A stretch of 64,000 nucleotides of DNA from Promethearchaeota archaeon (GTDB lineage Archaea > Asgardarchaeota > Lokiarchaeia > Sigyniarchaeales > SOKP01): NCBI GenBank assembly GCA_030599585.1, contig JAUVNS010000006.1:96001-160000 (forward strand). Reading direction: 5' to 3'. This document shows, piece after piece, positions 3 to 53,760 of the stretch. The position numbers were made by a program, and so were the translations under genes. How positions within the stretch are numbered: the first letter of the stretch is position 1; each line of letters starts with the position of its first letter. The notes beneath the pieces are model-generated. The model made no database searches and was not told the DNA's origin. It saw only the letters and a program-made list of their open reading frames with translations.

Positions 3-1262
3 GATTTTCCATCTGAAAATATTTATCCTTCTGTTAAAGATATTCCCGGAGAGGTTGATTTTGCATTTATTACGGTGCCTAAAAACAAGATCTTAGGAAT
101 TATTGACGATTGCGTTGTAAAGAAAGTTAAGTTAGTGAGTATTTTCACAGCAGAATTTTCTGATGCAGGAACAAAGGAGGGTATCGAGTTAGAGTTAGAA
201 TTGTTAAAAAGAGCAAATAATGTCGTTAGATTTTTAGGTCCTAATGGAATGGGGCTCTTCTATCCAAAAAAGGGAATACAATGGCGAGGAAAATTCCCTA
301 CAGAAGCTGGAAACATTGGATTCGTGGCTCAATCTGGTGGTATTTGTAATATTGCTATCTATACAGCAAAGGAATTAGGATTTCACTTTTCTAAAGTATT
401 TTCATTTGGAAATGGGACTGATTTAGATGTTGTTGACCTTATTTCATTTTTTGAAAACGACCCAGAAACTAATATTATATTATGTTATGTTGAGGGGGTA
501 AAAGAGGGACGAGGACATGATTTAATGAGCGCAATTGCAAGAACAACAAAGCCTATTGCTTTATTAAAAGGGGGGAAATCTGAAATTGGGTCTAATGCGG
601 TACAAACTCATACAGCATCAATTGCAGGTAATACTAAAATATGGAAATCGGTTTTTAAACAGAACCCAATTATGGAAGTTAACTCTTTGGAGCAATTACT
701 TCATATTGCTCATCTTATCGATTGTTATGGAATTAAAAAGATTGAGAATGTTGCAGTATTTAGTATTAGCGGTGGATACGGAGTAGTATTAGTAGATTTA
801 TTGCAAGAAGCGGGATTAAATATCCCCAATTTTAGCCCTGAAATTCAAAAAAAATTAGATGAGCAATTTTTTATACGCGGTACAAGTTCAAGGAACCCTT
901 TAGATGCTGCTGCTCAATTATTTCAAGGTGATAGCATAAGAAGGATCATAGACATCGCTTTATCCGATAAAAAAATAGATTGTTTAGTAATGGATTTACC
1001 GAGCTATTATTTTGACCCGCGATATTTCTTTACCCCTATAGAAAATTTTGAAGAAATTATAATCGATACCTTATGCCTTGGGCATAAATACAACAAACCG
1101 CTTATCCCTATAATTCAACGAACACATACACCAGAAGAAAGAAGGCGCGTTTCAAAAATATTAGCTGCAAAAAAAGTTCCGATTTTTGGAGATCCTCTGG
1201 AAGTTATTCCCTTATTACCTATAATCTCGGAATATTATACAAAGAAAACTCAAAATACCTGA
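3..1262 (+). CDS. ADP-forming acyl-CoA synthetase alpha-type protein (CoA-binding + succinyl-CoA ligase-like), 5'-truncated by window
   Basis: The frame is open to the window edge (DFPSENIYPSVKDIPGEVDFAFITVP). Motifs LGPNGMG, AQSGG, SFGNGTD, THTASIAG (phospho-His), SGGYGV, RNPLD. Confidence 0.85.
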   Translation, partial: DFPSENIYPSVKDIPGEVDFAFITVPKNKILGIIDDCVVKKVKLVSIFTAEFSDAGTKEGIELELELLKRANNVVRFLGPNGMGLFYPKKGIQWRGKFPTEAGNIGFVAQSGGICNIAIYTAKELGFHFSKVFSFGNGTDLDVVDLISFFENDPETNIILCYVEGVKEGRGHDLMSAIARTTKPIALLKGGKSEIGSNAVQTHTASIAGNTKIWKSVFKQNPIMEVNSLEQLLHIAHLIDCYGIKKIENVAVFSISGGYGVVLVDLLQEAGLNIPNFSPEIQKKLDEQFFIRGTSSRNPLDAAAQLFQGDSIRRIIDIALSDKKIDCLVMDLPSYYFDPRYFFTPIENFEEIIIDTLCLGHKYNKPLIPIIQRTHTPEERRRVSKILAAKKVPIFGDPLEVIPLLPIISEYYTKKTQNT

Positions 1263-48966: not shown

Positions 48967-49404
48967 ATGAAAGAACTATACGAAATAGGTATTGTTTTCC
49001 GAGGATTTATCCTAGTAAGTTACGAGTTTAAGAAAATTGAAAAAAGGGATAAAGTTAAAAATGTGAGCAAGGATTTGAGAGGAGGTTTTATTTCAGCGAT
49101 AAATACATTTGCTAAAACTGCTTTCAACAATCTTTCATTAGAATATTTAGAATCAGGGAACATCTTATTTATTTTTAAAGCCCTTGAAATACAAGCCGCA
49201 AATTATAATGTTGCGGAACCAGTTATTTTATATGGTTTAGTAGACAAAAAAAGGAAAGATACCGATAAGTTTGTTAAAAAATTCCTTGAAAAGATTGACC
49301 CCATCTTGAACCTTTTTATAACGAGATATAGTAACAAGGACTTAACTGAGTTTAATCAATTTGCACCATTTCAGAACGATATTAAAGAGTTTATCTTGAA
49401 TTGA
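48967..49404 (+). CDS. Standalone longin-like domain protein
   Basis: EIGIVFRGFILV...DLRGGFISAINTFA...LEYLESGNILFIF...ILYGLV...helix. The GGF.SA.N.F helix is the same as in the TPR-longin C-termini. Confidence 0.6.
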   Translation: MKELYEIGIVFRGFILVSYEFKKIEKRDKVKNVSKDLRGGFISAINTFAKTAFNNLSLEYLESGNILFIFKALEIQAANYNVAEPVILYGLVDKKRKDTDKFVKKFLEKIDPILNLFITRYSNKDLTEFNQFAPFQNDIKEFILN

Positions 49405-49409
49405 AGGAA

Positions 49410-51083
49410 TTAATAAGTCCCCAGACTCCATCCCTTAGGTTCTGAACGCGAGTATATGAGGACTCCCTCCATTCTCAATTTATCGATCTGTTTTTCAACG
49501 ACATCCCTCCCGTATCCCAACATCCCAATATCGTCAATTAATTTTTTTTTAGTAGAGACTAATTTGAACTTTTCTAAGTGAGTGATGATAATAGTTTTTA
49601 AATTTATCTCAGCTATAGTTTCTGAAGAGGGTGTATTTTCTATAACTTTTCCTTTTTTACCCTCCTGCTTCAAAGCATCAATTAACGCCCCTCCTTTTTG
49701 AGTAGGAATCTCTTGCTCTACCACAATGGGTTTTATCCTTTTCCCCTTTTTAACAAGAGCTTTAGCCGTACCACCTACTCCTATTTCATCTTCTGGCAAA
49801 GTCCAAACCGAATATGTTATCTTATCATAGGAATCAGGTTTTTCCGAAATCATTCGCTGAAATTCTTCTACAACACTATCAGTGAGATATCCTTTCTTCT
49901 CCAGTTCTGCTCCAATCCCCTCAATAATCCTATTATCTATTAAATATTTGAAAATATATTCTCTAATGTTAGTTGGGACGGTTTCGAATATTATTGGTTT
50001 CGGGTCTTTTGTATCTAGAGTCTGAGACTCCGGGATTTTTATGTTATACGGAATTTCTAAAGGAGGTTTTTCACCGCATTCAAGATCACTTATACACCTA
50101 ATACTCCTATCGTACCCCCCAAATAAGATGTTCGTTATACCATCATCAGGATTAACAATTGAAGAAACAATTTTAATAGAATTCGAGGCAGAAGTTTTCC
50201 ATTTCAACTCAATATCTAATGAATCCAAGTGAGGGTTATGGTATATGTAAAGCGATCCATCAGCACATCCAACTATTATCTCTTTAGCGTTATCTGCATC
50301 GATGTCAATTATTTTTAAAGAAATAGGTCGACTTTTTTCGATCTTAATAGATTTTATCTCTACGCCCTCAGTATTAAGCACTCTTATAAAAGAATCATCA
50401 GTTCCTATGATTATTTCATAATATCCATTATTTGTAACATCTCCAACCTCGATAGTATTAATTTGTGAATCAAAATCTTTTTGCCATACTATATCTGGTT
50501 TGTTCTCTTTAAATTGAATCAATTGAAGCATCCCATTTTTAGTCCCGACGAGTAAACCGTAAATCGGTATATCAACATCTGGAAGCTTTAAATAACCTAG
50601 CGTTATTGCTGTTACCCAGGAATCATAATATAATGTGAAAATAGGCTCAGTAGAATCAATATTTTCGAAAATTTTAAGGGTTTTATCTTCGCTTCCATGA
50701 ATCAGCTCTATATTATTATCTCTAGTAAAATCACCTGCAATAACGCTTAGTACTTTACCCTTTGACTTATAATTCATAATACCAGCTAGCTTGTTGATAC
50801 CTTTGACTAATTTAACAACCAAAAAATTGCCATCCCCAGCACCTACCAGAATCTCTTCGCAGCCATCTTGAGTTATATCTATAGGATAAGTAGTTCGGAC
50901 CCAACCATCGAAAGTAATGCTATCAAGAATGTTCAAATCTTGGTCCATGAGATATAATGTTTTGTCGTGGCCCCCAAAAACGATGTAAGTATTGTCTCCA
51001 CACTTCAGTGTTGAACAAGTAAGAACAGCATCAGGACATTCAAACATCCAGTTCAAATTAAATTGTTTTTTGAGTTTTGACAT
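49410..51083 (-). CDS. FG-GAP-like beta-propeller (BBS2/ITFG2-like) with C-terminal winged helix
   Basis: Blade repeats DITQDGCEEILVGAGDG, GDFTRDNNIELIHGSEDKTL, GDVTNNGYYEIIIGTDDS, DIDADNAKEIIVGCADG. The C-terminal ~60 aa have a wHTH pattern. No signal peptide. Confidence 0.6.
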   Translation of the reverse strand: MSKLKKQFNLNWMFECPDAVLTCSTLKCGDNTYIVFGGHDKTLYLMDQDLNILDSITFDGWVRTTYPIDITQDGCEEILVGAGDGNFLVVKLVKGINKLAGIMNYKSKGKVLSVIAGDFTRDNNIELIHGSEDKTLKIFENIDSTEPIFTLYYDSWVTAITLGYLKLPDVDIPIYGLLVGTKNGMLQLIQFKENKPDIVWQKDFDSQINTIEVGDVTNNGYYEIIIGTDDSFIRVLNTEGVEIKSIKIEKSRPISLKIIDIDADNAKEIIVGCADGSLYIYHNPHLDSLDIELKWKTSASNSIKIVSSIVNPDDGITNILFGGYDRSIRCISDLECGEKPPLEIPYNIKIPESQTLDTKDPKPIIFETVPTNIREYIFKYLIDNRIIEGIGAELEKKGYLTDSVVEEFQRMISEKPDSYDKITYSVWTLPEDEIGVGGTAKALVKKGKRIKPIVVEQEIPTQKGGALIDALKQEGKKGKVIENTPSSETIAEINLKTIIITHLEKFKLVSTKKKLIDDIGMLGYGRDVVEKQIDKLRMEGVLIYSRSEPKGWSLGTY

Positions 51084-51236
51084 GGTTCATTACACAAGAT
51101 ACTAAATAATATGATTCTATAATAATTGCAGAATGCTTATTCTTTAATTATAGTTATAGAAGTTCTTTTAAACTTATTAAATGAATATGAAAATTTAAAA
51201 ATAATATAAAAAAAAAATATTTATAATAAGTATTAA

Positions 51237-53429
51237 TTATAGTCCAAGTTGTGCATCGCTAGGAGAGTAAGCTCCAGTACCGCTAATTTTATAAGTGATC
51301 TCTATTTTTTCTTCAGCCATTAATTTGTCAATTGTCCACTTAAGCGTATCTTGTCCTACTTCGTCTGTGATCTCTGGTTTCATAGAGAAATCCGAATACT
51401 CGAAGCTATCGGGTACTTTGTCCATGAGAACTAATTTCTGTAAAGGCGCAGTCCCAATATTTTCAAGAGTTAAGATTATTTCATAGTTGCCCAATTTTCC
51501 AATTGGAAGGACTTCCTTTCCAATTCTAAAGCGTCGTCTCAGATGCAAGGCTTCTATTACAGGTACTTCTGGCTTAAACTCTAATTCTTGAGAAACTGGG
51601 AACGTGTTAGTAAAATAAGTTATCTCTGATTCAAACTTTGACTCTTGAGCGGGATTTATACAATGAATCGGGTATTGAAACTCTAAAGATGATTCCGGCA
51701 TAAATAAACCATTACTCGAGTTTCTGAGATCCTTCAGAGAAATTTTAAAAATATTTCCGTCAAAATTAACAGATCCCGAATCAAGATCAATTTCTTTTCG
51801 GTTCCATAATACTTTTATCTCATCAGCTTTAGGTGGTTGATATTCATCGTTGAAATATTGCTGAACAACGGTGATTTCGTTTAATGGGGCTGATCCATTA
51901 TTGACCATCTTCAATGTTGCAATAACATCTTTCTCTTTGTAGGTAGGAACTTGTTCTATATCGTAAGACATATCACCTGCTATACTTGCGATTTCTAATA
52001 TAACATCAGCAATGGAAGCAGTTCCTTTGACGATTGTTTGAAAATCAGGCATAACTCGAAATTCGAGCTTCTTCCTAAAAGCAGGATATTCTTCAGATTC
52101 AAATTTCCATTTCTTAGAATGCCATTGAGCCCCAGCTGGTAAATATGGGACATCTTTAGGATCTATGTCGACATATTTCACAGATTCATCCTCTGGAGAA
52201 TACACATCCGCATTAAATAATTGAATTATAAATTCTGAAGGATTTTCAAAAACGAGCTTGCAATCCCAAACACCTGGTTCTTCATCGCGTTCAACCGTAT
52301 CGACATAAAATTTGTTTCTAGTATAAGCGTCGTATTTATCGATGTCTAACCCTTCTGCAAAGGAAGATGATGCTTCATATGTTACATCGATTGTGCCTGT
52401 TTTCCTCTTTGTAATGTCTGTTACTAAGATACTGCAAGTAAATTTCAAGAGAACTGTTGTTTCAGGCATCAATTTCTCAATGTTCCAGACAATCTTATTA
52501 CCTTCAACTTCTGCTCGTCCTTCTGTTGTGTCTCTTACGACGGGATTACTAAAATCCCCAGGAATATGTTTCACAACTTTAACATTTTTAATTGCTTTTG
52601 CGAATAAATTTCTCATAGCAATAGCAAAGGTAACAGTATTTTCTTTGTCAATTGAAATTCCAAAGGCTTGTAGAGAAAATCCATCTGAGGCGGTTCCGCC
52701 ATCTTCAAAAGTTTCATCTTCTTCATCCTCTTCTTCTTCTTCCCCTTCTTCTTCTTCCTCTTCTTCCTCTTCTTCTTCCTCTACAGGAGCAATTCGTTCT
52801 TTTACTTTAGCGCCTGCCTTACTAGTTTTATCTTTCGCTTTAAGGAGGTTAGTTTCAATATCCCTTAGATTTAAAACATTATCGGCATCAGGAAGAGTGT
52901 TAACATACTCTTGAACAAGGAGCAAATTTTTGATTTCTTCCTTAATAACAAAATCTTCAGTATAAGCATTTGTATCTTTATCAGTTCCGAGCTCTCTGAT
53001 TTTAATATCTTTTGATTTTAAACTTGTACTATCAATATTTTTGAGGGAAAGATCAATATCCCATAACCGATCTTTCTTTGATTGATTTTCCACGCTTAAC
53101 TGGCCTTTAAAGTTAATAGATTCTATGTTAGAGTCGTGATCTAACTCTACGTCAACATTTTCAATAATTTTCACCAGTCCCGTTACTCCTTCTCTATTGC
53201 CGTCTTTTAGTAAAATTGATCCTTCTAATTCACCCGTATTTGCATCATATGTCTCAATCACAGGAGTAGAAATATCTCTATCGACTAGCATAACTTTGCC
53301 GCTATCTAAATCGGACCTTTTTAGACCTTCGGCTAATTTTTCTTCAGCAGCTTCTTCAGCAGCCCAACCATAACTTGGTTTAGGTTGTGCTCTTGCTCTA
53401 GGTTCTTTTTCTTTTTTCTTACGTGCCAT
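51237..53429 (-). CDS. Cytoplasmic multi-Ig beta-sandwich protein (mu-homology-domain/DUF11-like) with poly-Glu tract
   Basis: IIENVDVELDHDSNIESINFKGQLSVEN and NVKVVKHIPGDF...TTEGRAEVEGNKIVWNIEKL resemble adaptin mu/delta-COP MHD segments. The C-terminal domain is DUF11-like. No signal peptide or TM. Confidence 0.55.
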   Translation of the reverse strand: MARKKKEKEPRARAQPKPSYGWAAEEAAEEKLAEGLKRSDLDSGKVMLVDRDISTPVIETYDANTGELEGSILLKDGNREGVTGLVKIIENVDVELDHDSNIESINFKGQLSVENQSKKDRLWDIDLSLKNIDSTSLKSKDIKIRELGTDKDTNAYTEDFVIKEEIKNLLLVQEYVNTLPDADNVLNLRDIETNLLKAKDKTSKAGAKVKERIAPVEEEEEEEEEEEEGEEEEEDEEDETFEDGGTASDGFSLQAFGISIDKENTVTFAIAMRNLFAKAIKNVKVVKHIPGDFSNPVVRDTTEGRAEVEGNKIVWNIEKLMPETTVLLKFTCSILVTDITKRKTGTIDVTYEASSSFAEGLDIDKYDAYTRNKFYVDTVERDEEPGVWDCKLVFENPSEFIIQLFNADVYSPEDESVKYVDIDPKDVPYLPAGAQWHSKKWKFESEEYPAFRKKLEFRVMPDFQTIVKGTASIADVILEIASIAGDMSYDIEQVPTYKEKDVIATLKMVNNGSAPLNEITVVQQYFNDEYQPPKADEIKVLWNRKEIDLDSGSVNFDGNIFKISLKDLRNSSNGLFMPESSLEFQYPIHCINPAQESKFESEITYFTNTFPVSQELEFKPEVPVIEALHLRRRFRIGKEVLPIGKLGNYEIILTLENIGTAPLQKLVLMDKVPDSFEYSDFSMKPEITDEVGQDTLKWTIDKLMAEEKIEITYKISGTGAYSPSDAQLGL
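52714..52781 (-). repeat. GAA/GAG-rich low-complexity tract encoding poly-Glu/Asp
   Basis: tcttcttcctcttct... run encoding EEEEEEEEEEEEGEEEEEDEEDE. Confidence 0.85.
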
Positions 53430-53583
53430 GGTAGTTTACCATTTTTTACATTTTCGTAAATATCCCATAACTTAATATCTATGGATTAATAATTATGTAA
53501 TCGTGATAGTTAAAAAAGATTTATCAACTAAATCTTAGATCTAAAAAAATATTAGCTGGTTCAACTTTTTTTTCATGCTAGAG

Positions 53584-53760
53584 TTAGATAGTGAAATCGT
53601 CAAACTTAGGAGGCATTTCGTTAGGGTTTTTAAAAATAAATCTACACATAGGGCATGTTAATCTCTTTTTCTTCGCCCCAATATCAGGTTTTTTGAAGGA
53701 ATAGCCGCACGCGGGGCATATTATAATAAAGTTGGAGTCTATATTCATCACTATCTTCAT
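53584..53760 (-). CDS. 58-aa CPxCG-type zinc-ribbon microprotein (missed by the ORF track)
   Basis: Manual translation MKIVMNIDSNFIIICPACGYSFKKPDIGAKKKRLTCPMCRFIFKNPNEMPPKFDDFTI*, with CPAC and CPMC knuckles. Confidence 0.75.
   Translation of the reverse strand: MKIVMNIDSNFIIICPACGYSFKKPDIGAKKKRLTCPMCRFIFKNPNEMPPKFDDFTI

Follow-up and report, generated by a model that had tools for sequence, protein, structure and literature searches.

A mu-homology domain protein and a BBS/ITFG2-type propeller protein encoded by a co-inherited gene pair in Asgard archaea

The origin of the eukaryotic adaptor and coat machinery is an open question, and its domains are known from Asgard genomes only as scattered, unfused pieces. 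A stretch of 64,000 nucleotides from a Promethearchaeota archaeon (contig JAUVNS010000006.1, positions 96,001 to 160,000; hereafter the window) carries three candidate pieces side by side, namely a longin, a propeller protein and a protein with a mu-homology domain (MHD). An earlier note, made from the sequence alone, had read them as the separate building blocks of a eukaryote-like adaptor or coat. Which of these genes belong together, and does the set resemble a coat?

Among Asgard candidates, 44 occurrences of the MHD family Adap_comp_sub (PF00928) have been listed (Eme et al., 2023; PMC10307638, Supplementary Information 4.3.1, Table S3). According to the same work, most Asgard phyla encode the MHD and a sigma-type longin, never within a single protein, and the distribution appears sparse owing to divergence; gene context was not given (Eme et al., 2023; PMC10307638). 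These statements stand in the supplement, and nothing on the Asgard MHD or Adap_comp_sub was found in the main-text literature. Köstlbacher et al. (2026) already include an Asgard cluster named BBS7/ITFG2 in their ESP catalogue, as noted in a 2026 preprint. A literature search, which was not exhaustive, returned no paper on a pairing of MHD and propeller genes. The parts are thus already published Asgard eukaryotic-signature candidates. What is added here is the pairing: a complete MHD is encoded next to a BBS/ITFG2-type propeller in a conserved arrangement.

Layout of the locus and folds of the encoded proteins

The genome that contains the window comprises 4.85 Mb in 52 contigs (~33% G+C), and its close relatives are all labeled as Promethearchaeota or Lokiarchaeota MAGs. 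Four open reading frames described in the earlier note were confirmed. Gene A (48967-49404, plus strand) encodes a standalone longin of 145 amino acids and converges with gene B across a gap of 5 bp. Gene B (49410-51083, minus strand) encodes 557 amino acids with a BBS7/BBS2/ITFG2-type propeller followed by two putative winged-helix-like blocks. Gene C (51237-53429, minus strand) encodes a soluble MHD protein of 730 amino acids that ends in two Ig-like domains. Upstream of C, gene D (53584-53760, minus strand) encodes a Zn-ribbon protein of 58 amino acids with a CxxC...CxxC pattern. Pfam assigns metabolic functions to the flanking genes, which encode a glycerate kinase (DUF4147/MOFRL), a lipoamide-type dehydrogenase, a metallophosphoesterase, a PLP enzyme, a ferredoxin-domain protein, and a C_GCAxxG_C_C protein. 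B and C are each served by a separate AT-rich spacer of ~150 bp, so co-transcription of the two is not required. A scan of the locus for promoters and terminators gave background level only.

No 19-residue window of A, B, or C reaches a Kyte-Doolittle value of 1.6, and none of the three proteins has a hydrophobic N-terminus. As they carry neither a signal peptide nor a membrane helix, they are taken to be cytoplasmic.

Gene A has no Pfam match at E ≤ 0.1. Its family consists of 55 clusters at E ≤ 0.001 among 1.84 billion representative proteins, and nearly all members are 140-160 amino acids long. An AF2 model built with 30 family members (pLDDT 92.1) shows the exact longin topology b1-b2-a1-b3-b4-b5-a2-a3, which, together with a length in the range of ~120-150 residues, places A among the longins, as had been proposed. 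Longins also ranked top in an exhaustive structure comparison, with values of 12.7 for TRAPP Bet5/Trs23, 12.1 for VAMP7, 11.6 for Mon1-Ccz1, 11.3 for a Lokiarchaeal longin, 11.1 for Sec22, 10.4 for AP2 sigma, and 10.3 for COPI (5mu7, beta/delta core); Roadblock proteins ranked below them. The modeled fold of A singles out no longin subfamily. In contrast to the known longins (TRAPP Bet5/Trs23, VAMP7/Sec22/Ykt6, Mon1-Ccz1, and AP sigma/COPI zeta), A belongs to no Pfam family, and it has no match to Clat_adaptor_s (PF01217), by which AP sigma and COPI zeta small chains were assessed. For gene D, the matches to Zn_ribbon families in Pfam were weak.

The description of B as a cytoplasmic BBS2/ITFG2-like propeller protein held. 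The N-terminal propeller (50064..51083, minus strand; residues 1 to ~340) was delimited by Pfam and by profile comparison with the PDB. Beta-prop_BBS7 (9.4e-23, 81.4 bits), BBS2_Mid (5.4e-11, 43.0 bits), and Itfg2 (5.8e-10, 39.4 bits) all exceed the Pfam cut-off of 27 bits for these propeller families, and FG-GAP_3 is likewise above its cut-off. With a profile of 21 B orthologs, ITFG2 of KICSTOR was the best solved relative (7e-12), followed by BBS2 (6e-6) and BBS7 (1e-4). B orthologs from the family f3 and the group g13, both discussed below, match the same Pfam propeller families; additionally, PTHB1_N (BBS9) was above the cut-off in one ortholog and BBS1 was matched weakly. B therefore has its propeller families in common with the BBSome propeller subunits (BBS1/2/7/9) and with the KICSTOR subunit ITFG2.

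The remainder of B (49410..50063, minus strand; residues 341-557) contains two conserved blocks and charged linkers. Judged by sequence pattern, the blocks are putatively winged-helix-like. The C-terminal 218 residues gave no usable match in Pfam, in the ESM Atlas, or with a profile against the PDB, where the best match was a Hop2 winged helix at a non-significant E of 0.43. An invariant Y-x-R-x-x-P-x-G-W motif at the C-terminal end stands out in the ortholog alignment (YSRSEPKGW in the window copy). In BBSome core subunits such as BBS2, BBS7, and BBS9, GAE, platform, and helical domains come after the propeller, whereas residues 341-557 of B contain none of these.

In C, the MHD region (52005..53297, minus strand; residues ~45-475) was delimited by structural alignment of an AF2 model built with 51 sequences (pLDDT 80.8). 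The range 79..475 of this model aligns to residues 168..435 of mu2, and the range 42/43..474 to residues 266/267..511 of the delta-COP MHD. The match thus covers the whole length of the domain, an elongated all-beta fold of two sandwich subdomains. Within the MHD, a poly-Glu insertion (52677..52799, minus strand; residues 211-251) is disordered (pLDDT <50), and an acidic run at this site is also present in the consensus of the C orthologs. Two Ig-like domains of pilin/DUF11 type (51240..51992, minus strand; residues ~480-730) form the C-terminus. Residues 1-36 are basic and disordered (pLDDT <50), with one short helix at residues 24-34; G21, E26, E29, and A33 are near-invariant among orthologs in this N-terminal stretch.

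Adap_comp_sub (PF00928) was matched at E ≤ 1 by 15 of the 19 C orthologs, and four of nine individually scanned orthologs exceeded the gathering score of 31.6 bits (47.4, 42.8, 35.6, and 34.5 bits); these above-cut-off matches span only profile positions 120-240 of 259 and overlap a DUF11 match. A PF00928 search of the window copy and of the whole window genome gave no match; as the control genomes were silent too, this is a weak negative. Single-sequence searches of A and C against the PDB yielded nothing useful, and the profile of C matched AP-3 mu alone (E 0.43).

Could B and C be generic secreted or surface proteins of the DUF11/FG-GAP kind, unrelated to eukaryotic adaptors? In Pfam, DUF11 is the sole match of the window copy of C, the sequence sources name it DUF11/COG1470, and generic multi-Ig chains head the Foldseek ranking for its model. 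These chains have TM values below 0.2; for the mu2 MHD entries, the target TM lies at 0.65-0.75. Furthermore, export signals are absent, C orthologs score above the PF00928 cut-off, and the B propeller exceeds the cut-offs of cytosolic BBS/ITFG2 families. This reading, which the earlier note had named among the outcomes that would undo its own, is largely refuted, and we dropped it as scarcely credible; the description of C as a cytoplasmic, multi-Ig, mu-homology-like protein was borne out.

Gene order, co-inheritance, and co-loss

Full-length B orthologs were found in 115 of the 134 genomes of the family designated f1. At 77 of 80 species-level ortholog loci recovered through C in this family, B lies 130-230 bp downstream of C on the same strand; the other three loci, without B, reach a contig edge. 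A comes next after B in convergent orientation at 73 of the 80 loci, with a gap of 2-48 bp in most. Synteny across genomes, which had been proposed as a check, was thus observed. The locus search with the C alignment retrieved close orthologs only (at least 55% identity) and added no phylogenetic breadth. At the g12 loci, identity to the respective window protein amounts to 65-67% for C and 48-52% for B.

Gene order in f1 is conserved for more than 10 kb around the locus, including the glycerate kinase, dehydrogenase, and phosphoesterase genes, so adjacency of B and C within f1 is weak evidence by itself. In the sister family f3, the B-like and C-like genes are also adjacent but convergent, and their flanks are unrelated to those in f1. 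By exact-sequence look-up, the f3 pair was found as NEF87_004104 and NEF87_004105 in Candidatus Lokiarchaeum ossiferum, and another f3 genome with the pair is that of Candidatus Harpocratesius repetitus.

Joint absence of the B and C orthologs was observed within f1 in the genera g2 and g6 and in two g11 genomes. The corresponding loci read glycerate kinase, then D where detectable, then A directly; at one of them a dehydrogenase gene takes the place of the kinase. D still lies beside the glycerate-kinase gene at two loci without B and C (L066 and L068). As A and D remain where B and C are both missing, B and C come and go as a cassette.

The same pattern could in principle arise among neighbors without any shared function, with adjacency as inherited gene order and joint absence as single deletions of a contiguous stretch. 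Such an account would agree with the collinearity of f1 and with the separate spacers of B and C, and one deletion removes two adjacent genes whether they are linked or not. However, it has to accommodate an adjacency that survives inversion and complete flank change between f1 and f3, absences in three separate genera with boundaries that spare A and D, and the strong conservation of both proteins. We consider it unlikely. Since adjacency is kept across two families despite changed orientation and flanks, and since the two genes are absent jointly, B and C are linked, and they are probably functionally coupled.

The longin does not follow this pattern. In f3, A is not near the pair, though each of the five genomes searched contains 6-16 matches to its longin family. 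In two g13 genomes (G276 and G272) A lies on contigs other than that of the pair, and in several g13 genomes it is not adjacent to B. A is a fixed neighbor that is not shown to belong with the B-C pair, and D is a neighbor that is not tied to it; both may simply flank the insertion site rather than be obligate subunits. Of the proposal that the building blocks of an adaptor or coat are encoded as one module, the linkage of B and C therefore stands, whereas the inclusion of A is not supported.

The C family and its relation to eukaryotic adaptors

A whole-protein query with C (E ≤ 1e-8) detected its family in 334 of the 400 Asgard genomes, which represent 77 of the 85 genera. The family is pan-Asgard, whereas the distribution was called sparse by Eme et al. 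(2023), and one of its clades is paired with a propeller gene. The Asgard Adap_comp_sub candidates of that work (PMC10307638) apparently represent the same family, as motifs are common to C and the Jordarchaeial entry when compared by eye. Full-length B was found only in the families f1 and f3 of one order. The family f2 gave a partial match to the propeller only; outside f1 and f3, the propeller part alone was matched, in other architectures and not next to C. Such MHD proteins thus work without B too.

Phylogenetically, the C copies linked to B, from f1 and f3 alike, group in a single clade of their family (support 95/96). Paralogs encoded in chemotaxis operons form a separate clade (support 100/100), and a third, long-branched paralog lineage lies apart from the B-linked clade. 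The chemotaxis operon encodes CheA, the MHD paralog, an orphan of 281 amino acids, and a CheW-CheC-CheX fusion, and it was found in five further genomes. The presence of a C paralog in this setting suggests a general adaptor function and not one in trafficking.

Compared to the MHDs of the AP-1 to AP-4 mu subunits and delta-COP (PF00928; 5wrk, 7ofp, 4en2, 4ikn, 3l81, and 4o8q), C has no fused N-terminal longin, which is the hallmark by which we assessed AP/COPI medium subunits and which is absent from the C model. In addition, a poly-Glu loop of ~40 residues is inserted in C, and two extra pilin/DUF11-like Ig domains are appended. For an AP/COPI heterotetramer, Adaptin_N large subunits and a Clat_adaptor_s small chain would be expected in the genome. 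In the window genome, Adaptin_N (PF01602) gave sub-threshold HEAT-like matches only (≤23 bits), and Clat_adaptor_s gave no match; the control genomes gave none either, so this is a weak negative. Unlike genomes with AP systems, the window genome thus contains no detected adaptin large subunit and no detected sigma subunit, the latter in a weak search. On these grounds, the idea of a eukaryote-like coat or AP-type adaptor at this locus is not supported.

The earlier note's idea amounts to a proto-adaptor of three or four parts, in which A and C would act as a split mu- or delta-COP-like subunit joined by B and perhaps D in a coat-like complex. Eukaryotic mu and delta-COP subunits consist of a longin and an MHD, which lends this arrangement its appeal, and A lies convergent with B, 2-48 bp away, at most loci that hold it, staying by B while the genes beyond A vary. 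Against this, A and D persist at the locus without B and C, A is found away from the pair in f3 and in the two g13 genomes despite an ample supply of longins in the former, and in structure A resembles AP sigma no more closely than it does TRAPP, SNARE, and Mon1 longins, with no match to the sigma/mu longin family. A longin-like C-terminus in the first gene of the chemotaxis operon was also considered; the similarity to the A family was weak (E 6e-4 among ten proteins) and was lost genome-wide, so this candidate was rejected. As A is independent of B and C, the three-part proto-adaptor is disfavored and we regard it as improbable. The reading of longin and MHD as a split mu subunit finds no backing from co-inheritance.

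A proposed two-gene module of B and C

The pair also invites a regulatory interpretation. The putative winged-helix-like blocks could make B a factor that binds DNA or associates with transcription, with the propeller as its sensor and C as a modulator, so that the pair would control expression and not sorting. Archaeal winged-helix domains are mostly found in transcription factors, and in three f3 genomes B is immediately preceded on its own strand by a gene for a TFIIB-repeat (TFB) paralog. In f1, however, the pair has no neighboring TFB gene, and the blocks of B match no DNA-binding family, the Hop2 hit being the best in the PDB. Winged helices also mediate protein contacts, for example in ESCRT-II and cullins, and the net charge of B is -17. 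A regulatory role of this kind appears unlikely.

Our preferred reading is that the soluble, cytoplasmic products of B and C work together as a two-gene module, most likely in a physical complex that would serve as an adaptor or scaffold; we give this reading about even chances. In such a complex, the MHD of C might bind client proteins or membranes at a short peptide motif or an acidic surface, by analogy with AP mu, delta-COP, and muniscins. C could dock on the B propeller via its conserved N-terminal helix (G-W-x-A-E-E...) or via its C-terminal Ig domains, and the two winged-helix-like blocks of B might recruit a further partner or dimerize.

A role of the pair at membranes, suggested by the same analogy, is rather doubtful. 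The lack of adaptin- or sigma-type matches above the cut-off in the window genome, the paralog in the chemotaxis operon, and the wide occurrence of C without B argue against a specific trafficking role. That B and C represent a bona fide archaeal two-subunit adaptor, with a membrane- or cargo-motif-binding MHD coupled to a BBS/ITFG2-type propeller, is a prediction we hold to be improbable. If it were true, the module with which AP/COPI binds cargo and the BBSome/KICSTOR propeller lineage would already have worked together before eukaryotes, in a culturable lineage.

The value of the finding is moderate, since the parts were already catalogued and the B-C complex is a prediction. The pair is present in the cultured Lokiarchaeum ossiferum, so that the ligands of an archaeal MHD are open to experimental study.

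The N-terminus of C and its paralog in a che operon

The mu-homology-domain (MHD) protein encoded by gene C begins with a Lys/Arg-rich stretch, which is followed by a conserved G-W-x-A-E-E-A-x-E-E-K motif (residues 1-36, window 53322-53429). A short helix was predicted with low confidence at residues 24-34. This N-terminal stretch is a candidate docking peptide.

A paralog of C (678 aa) was found elsewhere in the window's genome (G000:C8:138428-140464, fetched as L149:8429-10465, minus strand), embedded in a complete che operon. The gene order there was a 282-aa orphan, CheW, CheY, CheA, the MHD paralog, a 281-aa orphan, a CheW-CheC-CheX fusion, a 178-aa gelsolin-like ORF, CheR, and CheB. The order of CheA, the MHD paralog, the 281-aa gene, and the CheW fusion was conserved in four other genomes of the genera g12 and g5, and a fifth, from genus g13, showed this order minus CheA within the stretch fetched.

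Variants and flanks of the propeller gene B

Genus g13 (genome G276) carried an enlarged ortholog of B together with a second C-like gene, the two features being located at L047:3264-6365 and L047:9367-12132. The B ortholog comprised 921 aa, with an N-terminal extension of approximately 490 residues, and its orientation was inverted relative to C. The second C-like gene (1033 aa) was sited upstream.

In three genomes of the sister family f3, a TFIIB-repeat (TFB) paralog, transcribed in the same direction as the B ortholog, was its immediate upstream neighbor (L055:7579-8451, L056:7894-8754, and L057:10391-11308). A two-repeat gelsolin gene adjoined this TFB paralog in two of the three, namely Lokiarchaeum ossiferum and G143.

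Occurrence of longin A and a mis-binned locus

When the family profile of longin A was searched against the whole genome G000, 19 ORFs matched at E<0.01, including three standalone paralogs of approximately 150 aa (C9:171058, C15:43989, and C35:35793). At L090, a locus of the window's family f1, C and B were present and A was absent from the 6.2 kb downstream; this adds another locus with the longin away from the B-C pair.

The complete order of glycerate kinase gene, Zn-ribbon gene D, C, B, and A was borne by a 21.5-kb contig labeled 'Candidatus Nanopelagicaceae bacterium' (L072, DATKTW010000130.1). The C protein encoded there was 90% identical to that of the window, and the contig is evidently Lokiarchaeial, mis-binned into an actinobacterial MAG.
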